Shown here one piece after another: positions 5,429 to 64,000 of a stretch of 64,000 bases of DNA. Source of the DNA: Actinomycetota bacterium (lineage in GTDB: Bacteria; Actinomycetota; Actinomycetes; S36-B12; UBA5976); NCBI GenBank assembly GCA_009923495.1, contig RFTJ01000005.1, positions 39,321-103,320 on the forward strand, given 5' to 3'. Positions within the stretch are counted from its first letter, which is position 1. Each line of letters starts with the position of its first letter. The notes below the pieces were generated by a model, which was not told the DNA's origin, did not search any database, and saw nothing but the letters and a program-made list of their open reading frames with translations. The position numbers were made by a program, and so were the translations under genes.

Positions 5429-6275
5429 TTGCCAGGCTAGCGTGGCCAAGCATTTCTTGGACTGCTCTAATGTCGGCTCCGCCTTCGAGTAAGTGCGTCG
5501 CAGCCGAATGGCGCAAACCGTGTGGACTTAAGTCGGGAGCCCCGCCAAGACTTTGCAACACCTCGTGCACCATGGTGCGCACAACGCGTTGATCAATTCT
5601 TTTTCCGCGAGCACCCAAAAATACTGCGTTACCACTTTCCATCTTGGTCAATTCTGGACGTGCTTGCTCAAGATACTTTGCTAGTGCTGTGCTGGCAGCC
5701 GTGCCAAAGGGCACTACGCGCTGCTTATTACCTTTACCTATCACTCGGAGTGTCCTGCGACTTTGATCAATATCAGAAATGTTGAGTCCAACTAATTCGC
5801 CGACTCGAATACCTGTTGCGTAGAGCAGTTCCAAAATCGCCACATCTCGCACGTGAACTGGCGATTCGTCATCAGCGCGAAGTAGCGCAAGGTCCATTGC
5901 ATCAGTTGCTTGGGACTGCGCAAGTACGTGTGGCAGTTTTTTACCAACCTTTGGAATTACCAGTGCACTTGCTGGGTCGGAATCAATTATTTTGGTTCGA
6001 TGAGCCCAGGCAAAGAATGCTCTTATGGCGGTAGCTCGCCTGGCGATAGTGGCTGAACTTAATCCAGATGTTCGCTGCTGAGCCAACCAGCCGCGCAATT
6101 CAAATATTCCAACATCTGCTACGCGAGCGCAGTGCGCAGATTGGGCGAATTCGAAAAAACTGTGAATGTCTTTGCGGTAGGCAGCAATTGTATTTGGACT
6201 TCTACCCTGCTCTAATTCGACATATTGCAAGAATCGTGCGCAAGCAGAATCAAATTCCTGCAATTTCTCGGTCAC
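5355..6275 (-). CDS. xerC: Site-specific tyrosine recombinase XerC
   Basis: 306 aa. It has the Xer-type N-terminal core-binding domain (…RSPNTIAAYRKDI…) and the catalytic C-terminus HGLRHSAATHLLEGGADIRAVQEMLGHASLATTQLYTHV. Confidence 0.9.
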   Translation of the reverse strand: MTEKLQEFDSACARFLQYVELEQGRSPNTIAAYRKDIHSFFEFAQSAHCARVADVGIFELRGWLAQQRTSGLSSATIARRATAIRAFFAWAHRTKIIDSDPASALVIPKVGKKLPHVLAQSQATDAMDLALLRADDESPVHVRDVAILELLYATGIRVGELVGLNISDIDQSRRTLRVIGKGNKQRVVPFGTAASTALAKYLEQARPELTKMESGNAVFLGARGKRIDQRVVRTMVHEVLQSLGGAPDLSPHGLRHSAATHLLEGGADIRAVQEMLGHASLATTQLYTHVSMERLRAVFEQAHPRA

Positions 6276-9104: not shown

Positions 9105-9463
9105 TGACCGATGTCCACGATGTGGTGAATTTTGGGTGATGTTAAATCAGTGGCAAGTATTGCAATCACATCAAATCGCATACTATGGTGCGAAACTTTG
9201 TGCTCACAAAGCCAATTAAGAGCGGCTGCGCGCAAGTGCGTTAATTTAGCTGGAGTCACAGCTTCAGCTGGAAAGCCCCGACTTGTACTTCGACGGGTCT
9301 TAACTTCGCAAAAAACTAAGGTGTGCTCTGTCAGCGCAACAATATCCAATTCGCCCGAATTACTGCGCCAGTTTCGAGCCAGAATCACAAAGCCCTGGTC
9401 AACGAGATACTCAGCAGCTAGTTGTTCGCCAAATGCGCCTAGTTCTTTTGTGGAGAGGGACAT
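9101..9463 (-). CDS. yraN: YraN family (UPF0102) endonuclease-like protein
   Basis: 120 aa with the family pattern GAFGEQLAAEYL…GELDIVA…LVFCEVKTR. It overlaps the next gene by 4 nt. Confidence 0.85.
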   Translation of the reverse strand: MSLSTKELGAFGEQLAAEYLVDQGFVILARNWRSNSGELDIVALTEHTLVFCEVKTRRSTSRGFPAEAVTPAKLTHLRAAALNWLCEHKVSHHSMRFDVIAILATDLTSPKIHHIVDIGQ

Positions 9464-11108: not shown

Positions 11109-11771
11109 CTATGCCCCAGCCGACGATGACAGGCTCCACGACTTACGGTGATATTCGGTTAGTCCAACTTCACGAATTGCTGTCATATGTTTAGCGGCGC
11201 CGTAACCAACATTTGAGGCCCAGCCATACTGGGGAAAGGTTAACGCAAGTTTTTGCATATATTCGTCGCGTTCGACTTTGGCAAGGACACTTGCAGCCGC
11301 TACTGAAGCACAACTTGCATCGGCTTTAATCTTGAGCGTTACTGGCAAATCTATGCTTGGGATGTCAATTGTGAATAGGTCGGATTCTTTGCCTTGCAGC
11401 CAGTTGTGCTTGCCATCAAGAATTATGTGGTTGGGCTTGATTGCCAACCCTGAATACGCTCTTGTCCATGCAAGGCGAAGGGCATTTATTATTCCGATTT
11501 CATCTATTTCGGCAGCGGTGGCTGAGCCAACCGCGCATGATTTGGTCCACTGCTTTATTGCTAGGTAATTTTCTAAGCGCGCTTTGGCGCTCATCTGCTT
11601 GCTGTCCCGTAATTGTGCTGGTGGTTGAGCTACGTCTACATCAATTACTGCTACACCCACGCTTACCGGTCCAGCTAAAGCGCCACGGCCAACTTCATCA
11701 ACGCCAGCGACAAACTTAACTCCTTGAGTGAACAACAAATGTTCTTCAATCAAGGATGGCGCGACTGACAT
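11109..11771 (-). CDS. rnhB: Ribonuclease HII
   Basis: RNase HII active-site region VAGVDEVGRGALAGPVSVG…DSKQ…. I trimmed the start to ATG 11771..11769, which overlaps the lepB stop by 1 nt (TAATG). The ORF-track start is 11807. Confidence 0.9.
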   Translation of the reverse strand: MSVAPSLIEEHLLFTQGVKFVAGVDEVGRGALAGPVSVGVAVIDVDVAQPPAQLRDSKQMSAKARLENYLAIKQWTKSCAVGSATAAEIDEIGIINALRLAWTRAYSGLAIKPNHIILDGKHNWLQGKESDLFTIDIPSIDLPVTLKIKADASCASVAAASVLAKVERDEYMQKLALTFPQYGWASNVGYGAAKHMTAIREVGLTEYHRKSWSLSSSAGA

Positions 11772-12415
11772 TAGCGCTCGATGCCACCGATTCGATCGAG
11801 TGGCCATATCCGCACTGAAACTCTGCCCACTACATCTTTTAATGGAACCATGCCATTGTTCAGGTCTAGATGGAATCTTGAATCTTCCGAATTGCCACGG
11901 TTGTCACCCATAACAAATACATGGCCGTCAGGAACTAGCACGCTGAAGTCAACTTGGTTAGTGCTCGATCCTGCCCGTATGTAGGGCTCATCAATCCCTT
12001 CACCATTTCGCACGATGCGCCCTTTGGTATCGCAACACTGAATTTGATCTCCGGCCACACCAATAACGCGCTTCACTAGATCCTTGCCTGAATTAGCTGG
12101 AACAATGCCGACATACTGCAGGAAGTGTCCAAGCTTTCCGCTGTAGGGATTGGTGTATCCAACGCCCAGCCAACTGCTTGGGTCATGAAAAACAATGACA
12201 TCGCCCCGGTTAACACCAGTAATTTTTGTCGAAATTTTGGAAACCACAATTCGGTCGTTGATCTGCAGAGTACTTTCCATTGACGCACTCGGAACATAAA
12301 ACGCTTGAAAAATAAAAGTGCGAACCAAGACTGAAAGCACCAAAGCCGAGACAAGGACGACTGCAGTTTCGCGGAGAAAACCACCCGGCTTTTTAGTCAT
12401 AGTTCTGCTTTCCAT
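11771..12415 (-). CDS. lepB: Signal peptidase I (bacterial P-type, Ser-Lys dyad)
   Basis: 214 aa with an N-terminal TM anchor, the catalytic Ser box YVPSASMESTL, the Lys box DLVKRVIGVAGD, and GDNRGNSEDSR. Confidence 0.92.
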   Translation of the reverse strand: MESRTMTKKPGGFLRETAVVLVSALVLSVLVRTFIFQAFYVPSASMESTLQINDRIVVSKISTKITGVNRGDVIVFHDPSSWLGVGYTNPYSGKLGHFLQYVGIVPANSGKDLVKRVIGVAGDQIQCCDTKGRIVRNGEGIDEPYIRAGSSTNQVDFSVLVPDGHVFVMGDNRGNSEDSRFHLDLNNGMVPLKDVVGRVSVRIWPLDRIGGIER

Positions 12416-38102: not shown

Positions 38103-38564
38103 ATGGCAATGAAAAACCTAAAAGACCGAACCATGTTCGTTTTATCAATCGGTGTAGTTATCGCTCTAATCCTTGCCATAACTGGCGACTACATAATCTC
38201 TGGTCTCGAGACCAGCACTACCGGCGAAGCCCAAGAAGTTTCCTCTGACGTGATGAAACTAGCTCAGACTGCACTTGGTGGCGTAATTGGTGTCCTTGGC
38301 GGCTATTTCGGCGCGAAAGCAGGTAGAGATAATGAGCAAGGTCCCGAACAGGCTGCCTTGGTTGGCAAAATCGTGACCATTCTGGCTATTGGCACAATGT
38401 CCGCAGTGTGTTTGGCAATCATTGGAGACTATGTGACTGCCGCCATGGAGACGACTATTACCCGCCAGCCCCAGGATGTTTCGTCAGCAGTGATGACACT
38501 GGTTCAAACTGCGCTTGGTGGTGTCATCGGAATCATTGGAGCTTACTTTGGCGCAAATGAGTAA
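38103..38564 (+). CDS. Hypothetical 4-TM membrane protein made of two tandem homologous halves
   Basis: The halves AITGDYIISGLETSTTGEAQEVSSDVMKLAQTALGGVIGVLGGYFGA and AIIGDYVTAAMETTITRQPQDVSSAVMTLVQTALGGVIGIIGAYFGA align without gaps. I recognise no family. Confidence 0.6.
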   Translation: MAMKNLKDRTMFVLSIGVVIALILAITGDYIISGLETSTTGEAQEVSSDVMKLAQTALGGVIGVLGGYFGAKAGRDNEQGPEQAALVGKIVTILAIGTMSAVCLAIIGDYVTAAMETTITRQPQDVSSAVMTLVQTALGGVIGIIGAYFGANE

Positions 38565-57565: not shown

Positions 57566-58753
57566 ATGACACAGAGCCTAGTTAACAGAACCCGCGAAAC
57601 ATCCACACCAAATCTAGGCAAAATTGCCATCCTGAGTACTTATCCACCAACGGAATGTGGGATAGCAACATTTGCTAAATCTTTAGAGTCAGCACTCTTG
57701 GCAAACGGCCAAGCGGTGGACATCGTGCGGCTAACTAATGGTGAATCCAAACCATCGCCTGCAAATGTAGTTGCAGATCACAACGGACAGCAAGACCTTG
57801 CAGCTACCTGTGAATTGCTTAATAGTTATGACCACGTTTTGATTCAGCATGAGTTCGGTATTTTTGCTGGCAACGATGGCGAAGAAGTCACTGACATTAT
57901 TGATGGGCTGTCCGTGCCGGTCTCGGTTGTCTTGCACACAGTTTTAACTGAACCAACTTTGAATCAACGGACAATTCTCAACCATATTGCCAAGAATTCA
58001 GATGCCCTGATCACCATGACCCAAACTGGTAAAGCGAAGTTGATTGCCAACTACGCTGCCAACGTCGCCAATGTGCACGTAATCGGCCATGGCGCTCGAG
58101 CTATTCACAGCAAACTGGTTGAGCAAGCGAACCAAGTCAAGCGACCACGAATTCTCACTTGGGGTTTGATTGGGCCAGGAAAAGGAATCGAGTGGGCAAT
58201 TGATGCGTTAGCCATCCTGACAGATTTAGACCCCAAACCTGAATACATAATTGCTGGCCAAACTCATCCGCACGTTAAACAACGAAGTGGTGAAAGTTAC
58301 CGCCACTGGCTTAGAGATCGCATCGCCCGACAGAACCTAACTGGCAGCGTATTTTTTCTCGACCACTATCTCACAGAACCTGAACTTGATGATTTAATCG
58401 CCACTGCTGATATCGTCTTATTGCCCTACGATTCGGTTGAACAGGTCACCTCTGGCGTGTTGGTCGAGGCAGTCGTTGCTGGAGTGCCCATAGTAGCGAC
58501 AAATTTTCCACATGCGCGCGAAGTGCTTTCAGACAATTCCGGTCTATTAGTAAATCAAAAGGATGCCATCGGTATTGCTTTGGCGATTCGGGCCATTCTG
58601 ACTAGTAAGAATCGGGCCGATGCTATGCGGTCGCGACTTCGCCGGAAATCACCTGGCTTTCTGTGGCCAGAAGTCGGCCGAAGATACCTAGATGTGCTTT
58701 CAGGACTGGCTGATTCATCTGACCTTAAATCCGGACAGAAATTAGTTGGGTAG
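57566..58753 (+). CDS. Glycosyltransferase family 4 (GT-B fold)
   Basis: 395 aa with an N-terminal IAILSTYPPTECGIATFAKSL and the C-terminal GT1/GT4 pattern LLPYDSVEQVTSGVLVEAVVAGVPIVATNFPHAREVL (E-x7-E-like). It has no signal peptide. Confidence 0.8.
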   Translation: MTQSLVNRTRETSTPNLGKIAILSTYPPTECGIATFAKSLESALLANGQAVDIVRLTNGESKPSPANVVADHNGQQDLAATCELLNSYDHVLIQHEFGIFAGNDGEEVTDIIDGLSVPVSVVLHTVLTEPTLNQRTILNHIAKNSDALITMTQTGKAKLIANYAANVANVHVIGHGARAIHSKLVEQANQVKRPRILTWGLIGPGKGIEWAIDALAILTDLDPKPEYIIAGQTHPHVKQRSGESYRHWLRDRIARQNLTGSVFFLDHYLTEPELDDLIATADIVLLPYDSVEQVTSGVLVEAVVAGVPIVATNFPHAREVLSDNSGLLVNQKDAIGIALAIRAILTSKNRADAMRSRLRRKSPGFLWPEVGRRYLDVLSGLADSSDLKSGQKLVG

Positions 58754-58762
58754 ACAAAATTA

Positions 58763-59791
58763 ATGGCTCTTAACTACTCTCATTTGATTTCGCTCACTGA
58801 CACCGTAGGAATATTTGAACATGCAAAATACAACAAAGCTAGATTGGACCACGGTTACTGCGTTGATGATGTTGCTCGAGCATTGCTCTTAATTGAGCGT
58901 AATCAGCCAGATGACTCGATTGTCTTGAATCTGCGGCACATTTACTTTGACTTCCTTCGACAAGCGCAGAGTCCCGATGGCGCATTCATCAATCGTCGCG
59001 ACATCGCTGGCAACTGGAACGGTGAACCAGAAGTTTCGGATCATTGGGGTCGAGCCTTGTGGGCGTTGGGAGCAGCATTCGCCTATGACCAAGACCGGGA
59101 CATTGCCTACGAAGCTTTGCAACGATTCGAGTTAGGCGTTCAAAATCGCAGTGCGCATTTACGAAGTATGCTTTTCGCATCATTAGGCGCTTCAACCATA
59201 CTTGAGATTGATCCTGACAATCAGCCAGCAACGCGATTGCTTCGATCGACTACTGATCGAATAGACGCCCTGAGCCAAAGTGCTACACCACAGGAAAATT
59301 GGCCCTGGCCAGAACCGCGTTTGACATATGCCAATGCGATTTTGCCTGAAGTCTTAATTTTGGCAGGAACTCATTTGGACAATTCGGCTTATTTGACATT
59401 GGGTATTGAGTTGCTCAGCTGGCTGCTCAAAATTGAATCAGCAGCTTCACATTTTTCGGTAACGCCAACAAACGGCTACGGACCAACCGAACAACGAAGT
59501 ACCTTTGATCAGCAGCCTATTGAAATTGCCGCACTAGTTGATGCCTGTAGTTCCGCTTACAAAGTGACTAACGACCCGGTGTGGTTGGCTTATATTGCCC
59601 GAGGTGCAAACTGGTTTTCTGGGTCAAATGATTCAAAAACCATGATGTACGACCCGCTAACTGGCGCTGGCTTTGATGGCCTTACTGCTACTGGGCGTAA
59701 CCATAACCGTGGAGCCGAATCGACAATTGCCTACCTATCCGTGATGGATCAGTACCAACGCCAGTTAATGAGGCAACATGTCTTTAGTTGA
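58763..59791 (+). CDS. Hypothetical cytoplasmic protein, helix-rich (possibly alpha/alpha-toroid-like), middle gene of the GT4/GH130-like operon
   Basis: 342 aa. It starts 9 nt after the GT4 stop and its 3' end overlaps the next gene by 14 nt. Notable motifs are GIFEHAKYNKARLDHGYCVDDVARALLL, HWGRALWALGAAF and GAESTIAYL. I cannot name a family with confidence. Confidence 0.5.
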   Translation: MALNYSHLISLTDTVGIFEHAKYNKARLDHGYCVDDVARALLLIERNQPDDSIVLNLRHIYFDFLRQAQSPDGAFINRRDIAGNWNGEPEVSDHWGRALWALGAAFAYDQDRDIAYEALQRFELGVQNRSAHLRSMLFASLGASTILEIDPDNQPATRLLRSTTDRIDALSQSATPQENWPWPEPRLTYANAILPEVLILAGTHLDNSAYLTLGIELLSWLLKIESAASHFSVTPTNGYGPTEQRSTFDQQPIEIAALVDACSSAYKVTNDPVWLAYIARGANWFSGSNDSKTMMYDPLTGAGFDGLTATGRNHNRGAESTIAYLSVMDQYQRQLMRQHVFS

Positions 59792-61301
59792 GCGTACGAG
59801 TGTATTACTACGACCGAATCCAGCCCGAGTACTGGCACGATTGTTCATTCCGGGTGAAGAGTACTTAATAGCTGGAACTAGCAGAGCTAAAGACGTTGTC
59901 GCCCGGTGTCTGAGCTTGTCAGAATTAGCGGTGCAAGAAACTCTGACTGCAACTTTGGCCAAGTATGGATATCGGCATCGAGATCTAGAGGGGCAACTTT
60001 TAACGCATTACAGCGCTGTTGAAAATTGGGTTGACACCAAAGGCACACCTATTTCTCAAGAGCGCAAATTATTAATTGGCGCTTACTTCACACAAGAATA
60101 TTCATTTGAATCAGCCGCCTATTTCAATCCATCAATTGTTGCGCATCCCGATCAATCAGGTTTAAGTTCGGGCTACCTGCGCATCATCATGAGTGTGAGA
60201 GCAGTTGGCGAAGGTCACATATCTAGTTTGGTATTTCGTAGCGGCATCATCAACCCCATTGGTGAAATCCTGATTGATTCCAGCCCGCATTACGCAACCA
60301 CCCATGCTCTGCGAAATTCAATCTTAAATAACCGAGTGGTTCGGCAAAGCGCGATAGAGAGTGGACTTGATTCAGAACGACTAGATTTAGTATTGGGCTT
60401 GTTGCCTAATCAGTTCACGCCAGCGGATTTAGAAGTCGCCCTAGCCCAAGTAATTCCAGCACAACAGTCTCAATCAACAGTGGATCATGTTCGTTCAGTG
60501 CTTCAGAATATTGTGCAAAACGGTTACGAGCTGACCTTTGATAAGCGCACGCCTATAAGCGAGCAAGTGCTTTGGCCAACTTCGCCTGATGAGCGTAGAG
60601 GAATTGAGGATGCCAGGTGGGTAAAATTTACCAACCCGGACTTCACCACTAAGTACCTTGCCACTTATACGGCTTACGATGGTCAATCTGTTTCTACTCG
60701 AGTGTTTGAAACTGAGGACTTTCAAAAATATTCTTCAACAAACCTCACGGGTAAGGCCATCACAAATAAGGGTGTTGCGCTGTTTCCGCGAACAATAAGT
60801 GGCAAATATCTGGCACTATCCAGATGGGATCGAGAATCAAATTCAATCGCTTATTCAGAGGATGGATACCACTGGCAAGATGCGACCACAATTCAGGTGG
60901 CAACTCAGCCATGGGAGATCGTGCACATCGGAAATTGTGGGTCACCATTAGAAACTGACCTAGGTTGGATAGTAATAACACATGGCACTGGCCCGATGCG
61001 CGAATACTGCCTTGGTGCGATTCTGCTCGATCTTGAGGATCCTACGAAAATAATCGGTCGTTTGTCTCGCCCATTACTATCGGCAAACGCAGAAGAGCGA
61101 AATGGTTATGTGCCAAATGTAATCTACTCATGCGGCGGACTAATCCATAATGAAACCTTGTTCTTACCCTATGGATTTAGTGACACCGGTACCAGAATTG
61201 CCACGGTGAAAGTCAATGAACTTCTTGACACATTGCTTAACAACGGTCCAGAAAATGTAGATGTCGACTTGTCAACTGACTCAATGATTCACACACATTA
61301 A
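59778..61301 (+). CDS. GH130-like (DUF377/beta-mannoside phosphorylase-like) protein with a ~200-aa N-terminal extension
   Basis: 507 aa. The C-terminal half, KGVALFPRTISGKYLALSRWDRESNSIAYSEDGYHW…IGNCGSPLETDLGWIVITHGTGPMREYCLGAILLDLEDPTKIIGR…GYVPNVIYSCGGLIHNETLFLPYGFSDTGTRIATV, matches the five-bladed propeller pattern of GH130 as I recall it. I do not recognise the N-terminal domain. Confidence 0.65.
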   Translation: MSLVERTSVLLRPNPARVLARLFIPGEEYLIAGTSRAKDVVARCLSLSELAVQETLTATLAKYGYRHRDLEGQLLTHYSAVENWVDTKGTPISQERKLLIGAYFTQEYSFESAAYFNPSIVAHPDQSGLSSGYLRIIMSVRAVGEGHISSLVFRSGIINPIGEILIDSSPHYATTHALRNSILNNRVVRQSAIESGLDSERLDLVLGLLPNQFTPADLEVALAQVIPAQQSQSTVDHVRSVLQNIVQNGYELTFDKRTPISEQVLWPTSPDERRGIEDARWVKFTNPDFTTKYLATYTAYDGQSVSTRVFETEDFQKYSSTNLTGKAITNKGVALFPRTISGKYLALSRWDRESNSIAYSEDGYHWQDATTIQVATQPWEIVHIGNCGSPLETDLGWIVITHGTGPMREYCLGAILLDLEDPTKIIGRLSRPLLSANAEERNGYVPNVIYSCGGLIHNETLFLPYGFSDTGTRIATVKVNELLDTLLNNGPENVDVDLSTDSMIHTH

Positions 61302-61328: not shown

Positions 61329-62042
61329 CTAGCTAGCAATCACTAATTCCTGAGCCAGTTCGTCGGCTTCCATTCCCAGTTTGTAGCCAAATCCTCGGAC
61401 GGCAACTGCAATTGTCGGACCTCCGTGTTCGCGAATCTTGCTGCGCAATCGGGAAAGGTGCGATTCAAGTACATGGCCACCACAATGCCAGCCATCCCAG
61501 ACCCGTACCATCAACTCATCGCGCGAATGAACGCGTTTGGGTTTTTCCATCAGCACCGTTAATAGATCAAATTCAATTCTGGTTAGCGACACTTCTTGTC
61601 CATAGATGGCAGCCGTACGCTCTTCCAGATCAAGCAGAATTGGTCCCACTCGTAACTGGGAAACTGGCAATACTTCCTCGAGATTTCGGCGCAACAGTGA
61701 CTTCACCCGAGCAACCAAAACTCGGGGAAAAAATGGCTTGGCCATGTATTCGTCTGCCCCAGCTGCAAATCCAGTTAGCTGATCAATTTCATCAACCCTT
61801 GAGGATAGAAACAAGATGAGCACATTGCGAACACTCTTCAAGCGCCGGCACAATTCATAGCCATCCATGTCCGTATTACGGGCACTAATAATGACCAAAG
61901 CAGGCTGATGATTATGAAAGGTCTGAATCGCTTCTCGACCAGATTCAACCGCAATGGTGCTAAACCCTTCGGCTTGCAAAGTTGAAGCAACTAATGAACT
62001 TAGTTCCTTATCGTCATTAACAATGAGTATCTGGGGAAGCAC
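61329..62042 (-). CDS. OmpR/PhoB-family response regulator with a non-canonical receiver (phospho-acceptor Asp replaced by Ser); no adjacent histidine kinase
   Basis: 237 aa. The receiver has ILIVNDDKE (acidic pair), LVIISARNTDMDG (aligning to the canonical LVLLDLMLPGMDG), LFLSS, and MAKPF (Lys conserved). The winged-helix output has LTRIEFDLLTVLM…RVW…SHLSRLRSKI…IAVAVRGFGYKL. Confidence 0.85.
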   Translation of the reverse strand: MLPQILIVNDDKELSSLVASTLQAEGFSTIAVESGREAIQTFHNHQPALVIISARNTDMDGYELCRRLKSVRNVLILFLSSRVDEIDQLTGFAAGADEYMAKPFFPRVLVARVKSLLRRNLEEVLPVSQLRVGPILLDLEERTAAIYGQEVSLTRIEFDLLTVLMEKPKRVHSRDELMVRVWDGWHCGGHVLESHLSRLRSKIREHGGPTIAVAVRGFGYKLGMEADELAQELVIAS

Positions 62043-62285
62043 TGCACTGCCTTTCTCTTTTTATTTTGACTTCATCCGAATTGAAAACCTCGGCTTTAAA
62101 TATTCACCTTAGGAATAAGTTGCGGTCGTGTTGCAGAAAACTCACAGAAACAGGAGTTAGCACTATGGCTAGCGTCCTGACAGAAATCTCAAGCAAATTG
62201 TGAGCAAAACTTCAGCACCTTGCCAGACAGCACTGGTGTTATGAAAACTAATCGCAATTCTGCGAACTAAAAGGAGAAAATCAGT

Positions 62286-62939
62286 ATGCCGAAAGCAAGC
62301 ATTCGAAATACCCGATCGCTGCGACTAGTTCTTATGGGACTTATCGGAGCATCATTAATGGCAGTTGTAGGAGTTGGCACTTTTGCTGGACTAAATGCAA
62401 CAGCTTCAGCAAGTCACTCAGCTAGTGCCGGAACCTTGTCACTGACAAGTGCAAATCGTGGAGTTGGCTTTAGTCAGAGTGTGTCTAACCTCGCACCTGG
62501 TGATGTAGTTAATCGTTATGTGAACCTCACAAATGGTGGCAGTCTCGACGCAAAGTCTTTGTCACTGAAAATAACTTCAACTGGTACAGCAAGTCTGATT
62601 ACCAATGGTGTAGCACCAGTAACTACCAAAGCAGTCACAGTTACGGTTAACTCCTGCACGGGTACTTGGACAGTAGCTACAGGTGTTTGTAGTGGAACGG
62701 TACAGAGTGAAATATCTGCTACTCCGCTGTCTACATTCGCGACAGCACAAGATTTCGCAGCAAATCCAACTCTGGCCTCACTAGCAGGCCTGAATTTGCA
62801 GATCAAGGTCACTTTGCCAGATCAGGACGAGACCACTACTGATGGAACTCCTCCAGCTAACACTGTGCAGAACGGTTCAGTGAATCTGTCGTATTTGTTT
62901 TACGAAGCGCAGCGAACCTCCACCACAACCAATAGTTAA
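62286..62939 (+). CDS. Exported TasA/camelysin-like protein with a SipW-type signal peptide
   Basis: 217 aa with AAGGAG 8 nt upstream. The N-terminus is RLVLMGLIGASLMAVVGVGTFAGLNATASASHSASAGTLSLTS…, then NLAPGDVVNRYVNLTNGGSLDAKSL… and …NTVQNGSVNLSYLFYEAQ. This resembles the TasA/CalY layout of GTFA-type signal, AGTLxL, PGD…N.GSLD, and a Q-rich C-terminal strand. Confidence 0.7.
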   Translation: MPKASIRNTRSLRLVLMGLIGASLMAVVGVGTFAGLNATASASHSASAGTLSLTSANRGVGFSQSVSNLAPGDVVNRYVNLTNGGSLDAKSLSLKITSTGTASLITNGVAPVTTKAVTVTVNSCTGTWTVATGVCSGTVQSEISATPLSTFATAQDFAANPTLASLAGLNLQIKVTLPDQDETTTDGTPPANTVQNGSVNLSYLFYEAQRTSTTTNS

Positions 62940-62954
62940 TTTGCAATAGACAAT

Positions 62955-62990
62955 GAGGCTGTGAGCTGGGTAAAACCTGCTCACAGCCTC
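62955..62990 (+). promoter_or_regulatory. Intercistronic 12-bp stem-loop between the two exported-protein genes
   Basis: GAGGCTGTGAGC (62955..62966) pairs perfectly with GCTCACAGCCTC (62979..62990) across a 12-nt loop. No T-run follows. The RBS GGAGGTG of the next gene starts 6 nt downstream. Confidence 0.65.
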
Positions 62991-63006
62991 TACCCGGAGG
63001 TGAGTA

Positions 63007-63591
63007 ATGTTTGAATATTCAAAGAGAGATTCCGCAAGAAATAGTTTTGCGTTGCTCGCATTCTCAATTCTCTTTACTTTCACCGCCTCGCTTTGTAATC
63101 CGAGTTTGGCTGCAGTGAAAGGTACTTCGAGTAAAGCCCAGGTAGTAACCAGTACCGGCTGGGGGGCATATTTGGCACCGGCGGGATCAACGCCTAGTCC
63201 GGGACCTTATGTGAATACTTGGATTGCGACCCCTGGAACTCAATTGGCATATCTAGATTTGCTCAATCCGAACACCGTTGCGCTATCTGGAGTGAACTTC
63301 AATCTAAGTTCAGTCGAGCCAAACAGTTCTCGACAAAACGTACCCAGGGTCACTTTCGATGTATGCGTAGGCGCTACCTGGAATGCAACGACTGACACTT
63401 GTTCAGGCACCATCACAAACTTGGGCACTAGTACTGGCGGAACTGTTAACAGTTCGATTGTGATAGGCGCAAACGCGCGCCTCTCCGTTCGACTCACAGT
63501 AGGTAAGACAACCAAAATCTCCTGGACCACCACAATCAATGTTTTAACTGGCAGAGCTCAGGTTCGAGCGGCAATCACAACTAACTCATAA
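63007..63591 (+). CDS. Exported hypothetical protein, diverged paralogue/partner of the TasA-like protein
   Basis: 194 aa with GGAGGTG 7 nt upstream and an N-terminal hydrophobic signal FALLAFSILFTFTASLCNPSLAA. It shares with the upstream protein a Cys-pair motif (DVCVGATWNATTDTCSGTI versus NSCTGTWTVATGVCSGTV) and the C-terminal ending TTNS. Confidence 0.6.
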   Translation: MFEYSKRDSARNSFALLAFSILFTFTASLCNPSLAAVKGTSSKAQVVTSTGWGAYLAPAGSTPSPGPYVNTWIATPGTQLAYLDLLNPNTVALSGVNFNLSSVEPNSSRQNVPRVTFDVCVGATWNATTDTCSGTITNLGTSTGGTVNSSIVIGANARLSVRLTVGKTTKISWTTTINVLTGRAQVRAAITTNS

Positions 63592-63606
63592 CTAGAAGGA
63601 AAATAT

Positions 63607-64000
63607 ATGTATAGGTCAAAAACAAAAACAAGACTAGGAAGGCGAGCAGTAGCCAATGAACAAAGAACCATACTTGCCGCAATCACCCTTTTTCTTTTAA
63701 TGGGCATAGCTTTAACGAGTGTGGCCAGCGCCACTTACATCATGGTCAAGCAGATTCATTTCTCTCGTGTTCTTTCCGACAGCATGAAGCCTGAATTTAA
63801 GCGCGGAGATTTACTGCTAGTTAAGCCAGTCGACAGACTTTCGTTAGAAAAAGGTGACATTGCAGTGTTGCCTATTCTTGGGGAGCCAGGATCTCAGTTT
63901 GCGCACCGAATCATTAATGTTGAGCGAACCAACAACACAGTTCAGGTGCAAACTAAGGGAGACGCTAATCCAGTTATTGATCCATGGAAGTTAACAATTA
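63607..64000 (+). CDS. Signal peptidase I, ER/archaeal (SipW-like) type, 5' part (runs off the window)
   Basis: Not in the ORF track. Hand translation from ATG 63607 (GAAGGA upstream) gives MYRSKTKTRLGRRAVANEQRTILAAITLFLLMGIALTSVASATYIMVKQIHFSRVLSDSMKPEFKRGDLLLVKPVDRLSLEKGDIAVLPILGEPGSQFAHRIINVERTNNTVQVQTKGDANPVIDPWKLTI…. It has a TM anchor, the Ser box SDSMKP, and the His box AHRI and TKGDAN typical of the Ser-His (SipW/Sec11-like) class. Confidence 0.75.
   Translation, partial: MYRSKTKTRLGRRAVANEQRTILAAITLFLLMGIALTSVASATYIMVKQIHFSRVLSDSMKPEFKRGDLLLVKPVDRLSLEKGDIAVLPILGEPGSQFAHRIINVERTNNTVQVQTKGDANPVIDPWKLTI

Follow-up and report, generated by a model that had tools for sequence, protein, structure and literature searches.

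At the downstream end of the 64,000-nucleotide stretch of Actinomycetota DNA analysed here (hereafter the window; contig RFTJ01000005.1 of assembly GCA_009923495.1) lie three adjacent genes, P1, P2 and P3, which probably form a module producing a secreted TasA-type fibre, with donor-strand exchange as the proposed mode of assembly. The corresponding genes of other genomes are called T, P and S below. The features that matter for this proposal are:

62286..62939, plus strand: P1 (T gene), 217 amino acids (aa), with the ribosome-binding site AAGGAG at 62271-62276
62286..62387, plus strand: predicted signal peptide of P1, residues 1-34, ending in G-x-G-T-F-A, in ungapped register with TasA
62388..62420, plus strand: predicted donor strand of P1, residues 35-45 (GLNATASASHS), the equivalent of TasA residues 28-38
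62655..62690, plus strand: cysteine (Cys) pair of P1, C124...W128...C135, invariant in 200/200 family members
62955-62990, plus strand: RNA stem-loop, an inverted repeat with 15-nucleotide (nt) arms and a 6-nt loop, 16 nt after the P1 stop codon
63007..63591, plus strand: P2 (P gene), 194 aa, with the ribosome-binding site GGAGGTGA at 62996-63003
63607..>64000, plus strand: P3 (S gene), starting with the ATG at 63607, with the ribosome-binding site AGAAGGAA at 63594-63601, cut by the window edge at residue 131 of 184
63781-63783, 63904-63906 and 63961-63963, plus strand: catalytic residues Ser59, His100 and Asp119 of P3, aligned with those of SEC11

The initial annotation of this DNA had described three plus-strand open reading frames (ORFs), each with its own ribosome-binding site, and all three are indeed there, preceded in every case by a purine-rich Shine-Dalgarno sequence. 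The motifs that it had singled out in P1 (...VGVGTFAGLNATASA...AGTLSLTS...NLAPGD...NGGSLD) and in P3 (SDSMKP and AHRI) were also found. These are real genes and not chance ORFs, because P1 has 402 homologues at an E-value (E) of 1e-3 or less, most of those listed also carrying the Pfam domain PF12389, because the P2 family counts 140 clusters, and because at least 21 public contigs carry the identical trio. Among the sources of the exact P1 protein is the metagenome-assembled genome (MAG) 'Actinobacteria bacterium' GCA_009927365.1, which annotates it as hypothetical. The operon had been expected to run on past the window edge with further genes. To read beyond that edge we used a 19-kilobase (kb) contig from ENA (L001), identical over the module region, in which the peptidase gene P3 spans 555 nt (184 aa) and is followed by a gene of the YaaD family on the opposite strand. 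The peptidase gene is thus the last one, and the module therefore comprises exactly three genes.

P1 matches the Pfam family PF12389 (Peptidase_M73, TasA/camelysin) over residues 15-99 with 45.1 bits (gathering score 22.5, E 1.3e-11), in line with the resemblance to the TasA/CalY pattern that had been noticed in its letters. A profile built from 49 P1 homologues retrieves TasA (5of1/8aur) from the PDB with an E of 4e-7, the matching stretches lying at both ends of the domain. The fold points the same way: an AlphaFold2 model of mature P1 (predicted local distance difference test, pLDDT, 85.2; predicted template-modelling score, pTM, 0.81) has a single Foldseek match in the PDB at E of 1e-3 or less, which is the cryo-EM TasA fibre subunit 8aur_A (E 3.7e-7, probability 1.00, template-modelling score TMq 0.66), and the monomeric crystal form of TasA, 5of2, fits the model less well (TMq 0.47). 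The comparison with the TasA jelly-roll, as proposed at the outset, thus gives a match, and P1 is, as judged from its predicted structure, the precursor of a TasA-family major subunit with a jelly-roll fold. Ten residues are fully invariant in 200 sequences of the P1 family (P71, G72, D73, L104, C124, W128, C135, P178, E182 and Q195), and exactly two Cys are present in 80 of 83 T proteins from the loci described below. C124 and C135 probably form a disulfide closing a hairpin of P1. Actinobacteria favour disulfides in exported proteins, and the P1 Cys pair fits this preference; TasA itself, by contrast, is presumably devoid of Cys.

Alignment of P1 with TasA also suggests where the signal peptide would be removed. 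In TasA, SipW cuts after Ala27, residue 28 is the mature N-terminus, and residues 28-38 form the experimentally defined donor strand of the fibre (PMC9674648). The hidden Markov model (HMM) alignment places TasA Gly42 opposite P1 Gly49, which sets an ungapped register of GGGTWA|AFNDIKSKDATFASGTLDL (GGGTWA|AFND) in TasA to GVGTFA|GLNATASASHSASAGTLSL (GVGTFA|GLNA) in P1. Conservation around this point was counted in two P1-family alignments, of 49 and 200 sequences. Upstream of the cut, position -6 is Gly in 44/49, -4 Gly or Ser in 45/49, -2 Phe, Trp or Leu in 48/49, and -1 Ala in 48/49 and 193/200; downstream, the family keeps Leu at +2 (L36; 49/49 and 196/200), Asn at +3 (N37; 40/49 and 150/200), Ala at +4 (A38; 48/49 and 198/200) and Thr at +5 (T39; 43/49 and 171/200). 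The cut motif of the family thus reads G-x-G-(V/T)-(F/W/L)-A, followed by x-L-N-A-T-A. The initial annotation had placed the cut at ASA|S (Ala42|Ser43), a site that is not conserved in the P1 family, and cleavage there would lose the predicted donor strand; we therefore predict that P1 is likely cut at Ala34|Gly35 (TFA|GLNAT), in register with the TasA cut. By analogy with TasA, the N-terminal segment so released would act as a donor strand, and in the monomer model residues 1-18 of mature P1 are coil with a pLDDT of 56-72, the donor segment being unstructured. We infer that a dedicated peptidase is needed because the cut must fall upstream of a more canonical A-x-A site.

P3 would be this peptidase. 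Against TIGR02228, the model of archaeal/endoplasmic reticulum (ER)-type signal peptidase I (cut-off 51.85), it scores 67.7 bits at full length and 65.4 as the window fragment, and its score with TIGR02227, the bacterial Ser-Lys type, is 22.6 bits for a cut-off of 47. Its best sequence matches in the PDB are human SEC11C and SEC11A, in which SGSMEP, VHRV and TKGDNN align with SDSMKP, AHRI and TKGDAN of P3. Of 76 actinobacterial homologues, 75-76 keep Ser59, Met60, Pro62, His100, Arg101, Gly118, Asp119 and Asn121, and P3 has N- and C-terminal hydrophobic segments. On these sequence grounds P3 is a SipW-like signal peptidase I of the ER/archaeal type. The Ser-His class read from its motifs by the initial annotation is thus borne out, and the full-length protein still shows Ser, His and Asp and no Ser-Lys dyad. 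The housekeeping Ser-Lys LepB reported at 11771..12415 is real as well (TIGR02227, 148.9 bits vs the cut-off of 47) and lies on the minus strand.

P2 has no match in Pfam or NCBIfam, and none of 71 family members carries a consistent Pfam domain. A word-based search returned just 8 homologues and an exhaustive HMMER search returned 140 representative clusters, nearly all of 175-200 aa; the P2 family profile finds nothing among PDB sequences even at E of 10 or less. Its kinship comes from profile-profile comparison only: hhalign aligns the P1 and P2 families with 97.4% probability (E 1.4e-11, 137 columns), and the mature parts, after removal of the signal peptides, with 96.4% (E 1.1e-9, 86 columns). 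The alignment spans the Y-x-(D/N)-L-x-N-x-G strand and the Cys pair C-x-G-x-W...C-x-G-T, which is C120/C132 in P2 and C124/C135 in P1; exactly two Cys are found in 65 of 72 P proteins. A T-T-(N/G)-S terminus is common to both families, and the TasA C-terminus turns ordered in the fibre (PMC9674648). The shared Cys pair and TTNS ending that had been remarked on early thus reflect true homology, and P2 is, by profile comparison, a strongly diverged paralogue of P1. An AlphaFold2 model of P2 reaches a pLDDT of 87.6; its top template-modelling scores are to 8aur_A (0.49), AbpA 7ueg_A (0.42) and the Saci_0406 thread 7pnb_A (0.40), none of them E-significant. The signal peptide of P2 has a canonical A-x-A site, cut A35|A36 (Ala occupies -3 in 52/71 members and -1 in 64/71); after it come an extension of 16 residues, which is weakly conserved, and an almost invariant Trp. 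P2 is predicted to be a sub-stoichiometric minor subunit (initiator, cap or tip), the odds for the specific role of initiator or cap being about even. The invariant Cys pair and the T-T-N-S end could serve to define a new family of the TasA superfamily, neither Pfam nor NCBIfam having one for P2.

We thus propose that P1 would be exported by Sec and cut by the dedicated membrane peptidase P3, with Ser59, His100 and Asp119 as catalytic residues. Cleavage after G-x-G-(V/T)-(F/W/L)-A, at Ala34|Gly35, would leave x-L-N-A-T-A on mature P1, and the N-terminal segment, by homology with TasA 28-38, would enter the jelly-roll of the next subunit as a beta-strand, so that P1 would polymerise head-to-tail outside the cell. 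The Cys124-Cys135 disulfide would stiffen a hairpin of the P1 fold, and P2 might start or end the fibre in sub-stoichiometric amounts. The RNA hairpin after P1 may limit read-through or stabilise the upstream mRNA, giving more P1 than P2 and peptidase, and the divergent OmpR-type regulator upstream of the module (see below), which lacks the acceptor Asp, may switch the module.

The organization of the module holds throughout the phylum. Searching one genome for each GTDB species gave 107 relatives and 80 loci; going by record titles, these are actinobacterial except for two, both from one MAG deposited as 'Acidobacteria bacterium'. Carriers include Actinosynnema, Lentzea, Amycolatopsis, Actinokineospora, Umezawaea, Saccharothrix, Prauserella, Arthrobacter, Pseudarthrobacter and Tessaracoccus, as well as MAGs of Nanopelagicaceae, Frankiaceae and Mycobacteriales, and Acidimicrobiales. 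Synteny was read from 80 non-redundant loci, including 74 scan loci and L001, in which six-frame ORFs were labelled by HMM. T, P and S occur together in 69 of the 80, in the order T-P-S in 49 and S-T-P in 20, the trio being incomplete in the remaining 11, about half of which are cut by contig ends; P is syntenic with T in 71. Just one other gene recurs nearby, that of an OmpR-family response regulator, which lies no more than 5 kb away in 44 of the 80 loci. Some loci depart from this layout: L081 has the order S-T-T-P, with the major-subunit gene doubled, L067 carries a second T-P pair on the other strand, and S-T without detectable P is found in the Acidimicrobiales loci L064 and L065 and in the MAG loci L082, L084 and L086.

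A hairpin after the major-subunit gene is conserved too. The stem-loop following P1 has a folding energy of -34.3 kcal/mol (z -5.8), and none of 200 shuffled sequences was as stable. In 79 non-redundant loci we searched the 100 nt surrounding the stop codon of T for the best hairpin of 45 nt and compared it with six control regions of the same loci (two inside T, one inside P, one inside S, one after P and one after S). The median energy after T is -25.5 kcal/mol vs about -16 in the controls, and of 69-79 paired comparisons, 57-63 show the hairpin after T as the more stable one (Wilcoxon p 5e-11 to 4e-9). It recurs in both gene orders and, in most loci (L007-L086), the structure is kept with unrelated sequences. 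An excess of the major subunit is usual in pilus operons, and we propose that the hairpin is an attenuator or a 3' mRNA stabiliser giving such an excess.

Two further features lie immediately upstream of P1:

62043..62285, plus strand: intergenic region of 243 nt, holding the ribosome-binding site AAGGAG
61329..62042, minus strand: response regulator of the OmpR/MtrA family, 237 aa, divergent from the module, with Ser53 in place of the acceptor Asp

A consensus scan of the intergenic region found no sigma-70-like site on the plus strand, its predicted fold is unremarkable (z -2.7), and no riboswitch or known RNA turned up when 61900-64000 was compared with Rfam. The best family models of the regulator are of the OmpR/MtrA type, all under their equivalog cut-offs (MtrA, 178.9 bits vs 300). 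In an alignment with MtrA (2gwr), LVLLD stands opposite LVIIS of the regulator. Close relatives of the regulator have Gly or Ser at the acceptor position and six other freshwater loci have His: among module-linked regulators the acceptor Asp is kept in 37, vs Ser, Gly or His in freshwater relatives. No histidine kinase gene is adjacent to the regulator gene. This Asp-less protein is a candidate switch or regulator of the module.

On its other side, the module ends at a site where genomes differ. Four independent assemblies (L002-L005) break 7 nt after the peptidase stop codon (TAAAGGGCAG), and L001 (at 9169-9175) and L006 (at 6181-6187) diverge completely from that very base, 7 nt past the stop. 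The module therefore borders a strain-variable junction or genomic island. Further upstream, 57566-61301 encodes a GT1 glycosyltransferase, a 342-aa protein without Pfam match and a GH130 family protein, the last two genes overlapping by 14 nt, and this group is flanked by leucine and by isoleucine-valine biosynthesis genes; the group and the fibre module may belong to a single surface-related insertion. Elsewhere in the window, a plus-strand ORF at 38103..38564 was considered as a second TasA-like gene on account of a match to the P1-family HMM (E 8.7e-5) and rejected, the match being judged a signal-peptide/transmembrane artefact. It encodes a small membrane protein of 153 aa with two near-identical halves containing hydrophobic segments (...ITGDYI...GLETSTTGEAQEVSSDVMKLAQTALGGVIG...).

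A TasA-family subunit with a SipW-type peptidase is a well-known kind of system. With tapA-sipW-tasA of B. subtilis the module shares the co-orientation of its three genes, a dedicated Ser/His/Asp peptidase that has hydrophobic segments at both termini, and a TasA-family jelly-roll subunit whose N-terminal region aligns without gaps to the TasA donor strand. It differs in gene order (T-P-S or S-T-P) and in the size of mature P1, which is shorter than TasA (183 vs 234 aa) and without its C-terminal tail. It also lacks TapA: P2 was considered for this role, has no Pfam, NCBIfam or PDB sequence match, and is homologous to P1; it is therefore not a TapA, a protein unrelated to TasA. In B. cereus (sipW-tasA plus calY) and C. 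perfringens (sipW-bsaA-bsaB-bsaC), as here, a single SipW-type peptidase is combined with two paralogues of the TasA family and TapA is absent; starting or ending the fibre, the task of TapA in B. subtilis, falls there to the second paralogue. In C. perfringens BsaA polymerises and BsaB does not (PMC11580942). Unlike in both of these species, P2 is so diverged that no Pfam or NCBIfam model matches it, and no von Willebrand protein, sortase or type IV pilus genes lie near the module.

BsaA fibres are locked by an Asn-Glu-Lys isopeptide triad with the Asn in the donor strand (PMC11580942). Candidates for such a triad are present in P1, where E182 is invariant and N37 (150/200) and K115 (177/200) are frequent; the latter two vary independently, and a covalent lock of this type therefore finds no support as a general trait of the family. 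The module is also reminiscent of the archaeal filaments AbpA (7ueg), the Saci_0406 thread (7pnb) and AbpX, whose subunits are donor-strand-complemented jelly-rolls, as predicted here for P1; the next-best scores of the P2 model, after TasA, are to the first two. AbpX loci have an adjacent TIGR02228 peptidase, in a ten-transmembrane form, and AbpX has two proximal Cys with a predicted disulfide (bioRxiv 10.64898/2026.01.04.697558). The adjacent TIGR02228 peptidase and the two Cys are thus shared with the present module, whereas P3 has the ordinary two hydrophobic segments and P1 belongs to the bacterial TasA family PF12389 and not to the AbpA/AbpX clusters.

Several results weigh against a TasA-type fibre. 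The TasA equivalog model NF046066 gives P1 only 30.3 bits for a cut-off of 450, and the SipW equivalog NF046067 gives P3 48.9 bits for a cut-off of 190; with scores so far under the cut-offs, unlike in B. subtilis, the proteins are distant relatives of TasA and SipW and not orthologues. The PF12389 match spans only the N-terminal 85 residues of P1. The SipW-dependent-type signal peptide model TIGR04088, a check put forward with the initial annotation, stays under threshold on P1 residues 1-55 (13.6 bits, cut-off 19) and does not match P2, and no alternate-type signal peptide model matched either. For P2, Foldseek finds nothing in the PDB at E of 1e-3 or less, and the N-terminal extension is poorly conserved. 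The stem-loop has no U-tract and was not called a terminator in a consensus scan. The structure models of P1 and P2 are of monomers only, polymerisation being predicted by homology, and the host is probably a streamlined planktonic freshwater lineage, in which a biofilm matrix is unexpected. We consider it unlikely that P1 and P2, secreted via their dedicated peptidase, act as soluble or wall-associated monomers (adhesins, binding or antimicrobial proteins) without forming a polymer: TasA does have a stable, self-complemented monomeric form (5of1/5of2; PMC9674648) and no assembly factor is encoded beyond P2, but the first six mature residues of P1 are almost invariant (L+2 in 49/49, A+4 in 48/49), which is hard to explain for the disordered tail of a monomer, this near-invariant stretch coincides with the donor-strand position of TasA, and the closest structural match is the fibre conformation of TasA. 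The planktonic, streamlined character of the host lineage would also suit monomers; the window has a G+C content of 46-52% in 4-kb windows, the closest genome relatives are freshwater actinobacterial MAGs, including Candidatus Nanopelagicaceae, and cultivated Nanopelagicales have a G+C of 40-51% (PMC12817590), so that the window may come from that order or its vicinity.

Instead of a biofilm matrix, the product might be a two-dimensional surface layer or sheath, or an appendage with which the cells attach to particles or algae. The TasA superfamily includes surface threads, bundling pili and the lattice-forming AbpX, and the module adjoins the glycosyltransferase and GH130 genes and the strain-variable junction, a setting typical of surface-structure islands. 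However, no anchor signal is apparent: P1 and P2, both ending in ...TTNS, have neither an LPXTG sorting signal nor a C-terminal transmembrane segment or hydrophobic tail, and a motif scan of window ORFs above 150 aa found no sortase sorting signal. We therefore regard such a product as quite unlikely, keeping in mind that it would involve the same assembly chemistry and differ only in its higher-order form, a choice that sequence cannot decide. That P1 is a camelysin-type metalloprotease (Peptidase_M73) is highly improbable. The label of PF12389 is its sole support, while P1 has no HExxH motif or conserved His, its only mature His (H44) lying in a variable stretch, and those family members whose structure has been characterised are fibre subunits; the protease reading was rejected because the P1 family has no conserved His or metalloprotease motif, and the 'peptidase M73' label therefore does not imply protease activity. 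A secreted TasA-type fibre thus appears to us the probable product of the module.

Actinobacterial homologues of TasA were not, as the initial annotation had it, catalogued by signal-peptide models only, since NCBI already names them 'TasA family protein'. The occurrence of PF12389 in Actinobacteriota has been noted (PMC9245690), and Actinomycetota sequences fall in the central TasA cluster (bioRxiv 10.64898/2026.01.04.697558); our literature search found no paper with experiments on an actinobacterial TasA member. What is new here is the recognition of the partner family as a TasA paralogue, the conservation of the trio across the phylum and of a hairpin after the major-subunit gene, and the presence of the module in streamlined freshwater lineages.

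As a protein scaffold of Bacillus biofilms, TasA fibres are the textbook case, and they are now viewed as one branch of a superfamily of donor-strand-exchange filaments common to bacteria and archaea. This study defines within it a compact conserved module made of a major subunit, an unannotated paralogous and presumably minor subunit, a dedicated peptidase and a hairpin after the major-subunit gene. The module is common, being present in the soil genera Arthrobacter, Amycolatopsis, Actinosynnema and Lentzea and in uncultured freshwater lineages, and cultured carriers include Arthrobacter sp. FW306-04-A (NZ_CP084559.1), Actinosynnema pretiosum DSM 44132, Tessaracoccus antarcticus JDX10 and Amycolatopsis iheyensis. 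It is tempting to speculate, as a doubtful extension, that in streamlined planktonic freshwater Actinomycetota the T-P-S genes are a minimal set from which a cell-surface fibre, stabilised by disulfides, is built through donor-strand exchange, that the invariant hairpin fixes the subunit ratio, that an orphan regulator controls the module independently of phosphorylation, and that the fibre, encoded at the edge of a strain-variable island, is a target or decoy for phages or grazers and not a matrix. Such a fibre would then be the first appendage put forward for these freshwater cells, which are abundant, free-living and supposedly bare. More generally, a fibre in planktonic freshwater Actinomycetota, should it exist, would change how their cell surface is pictured.

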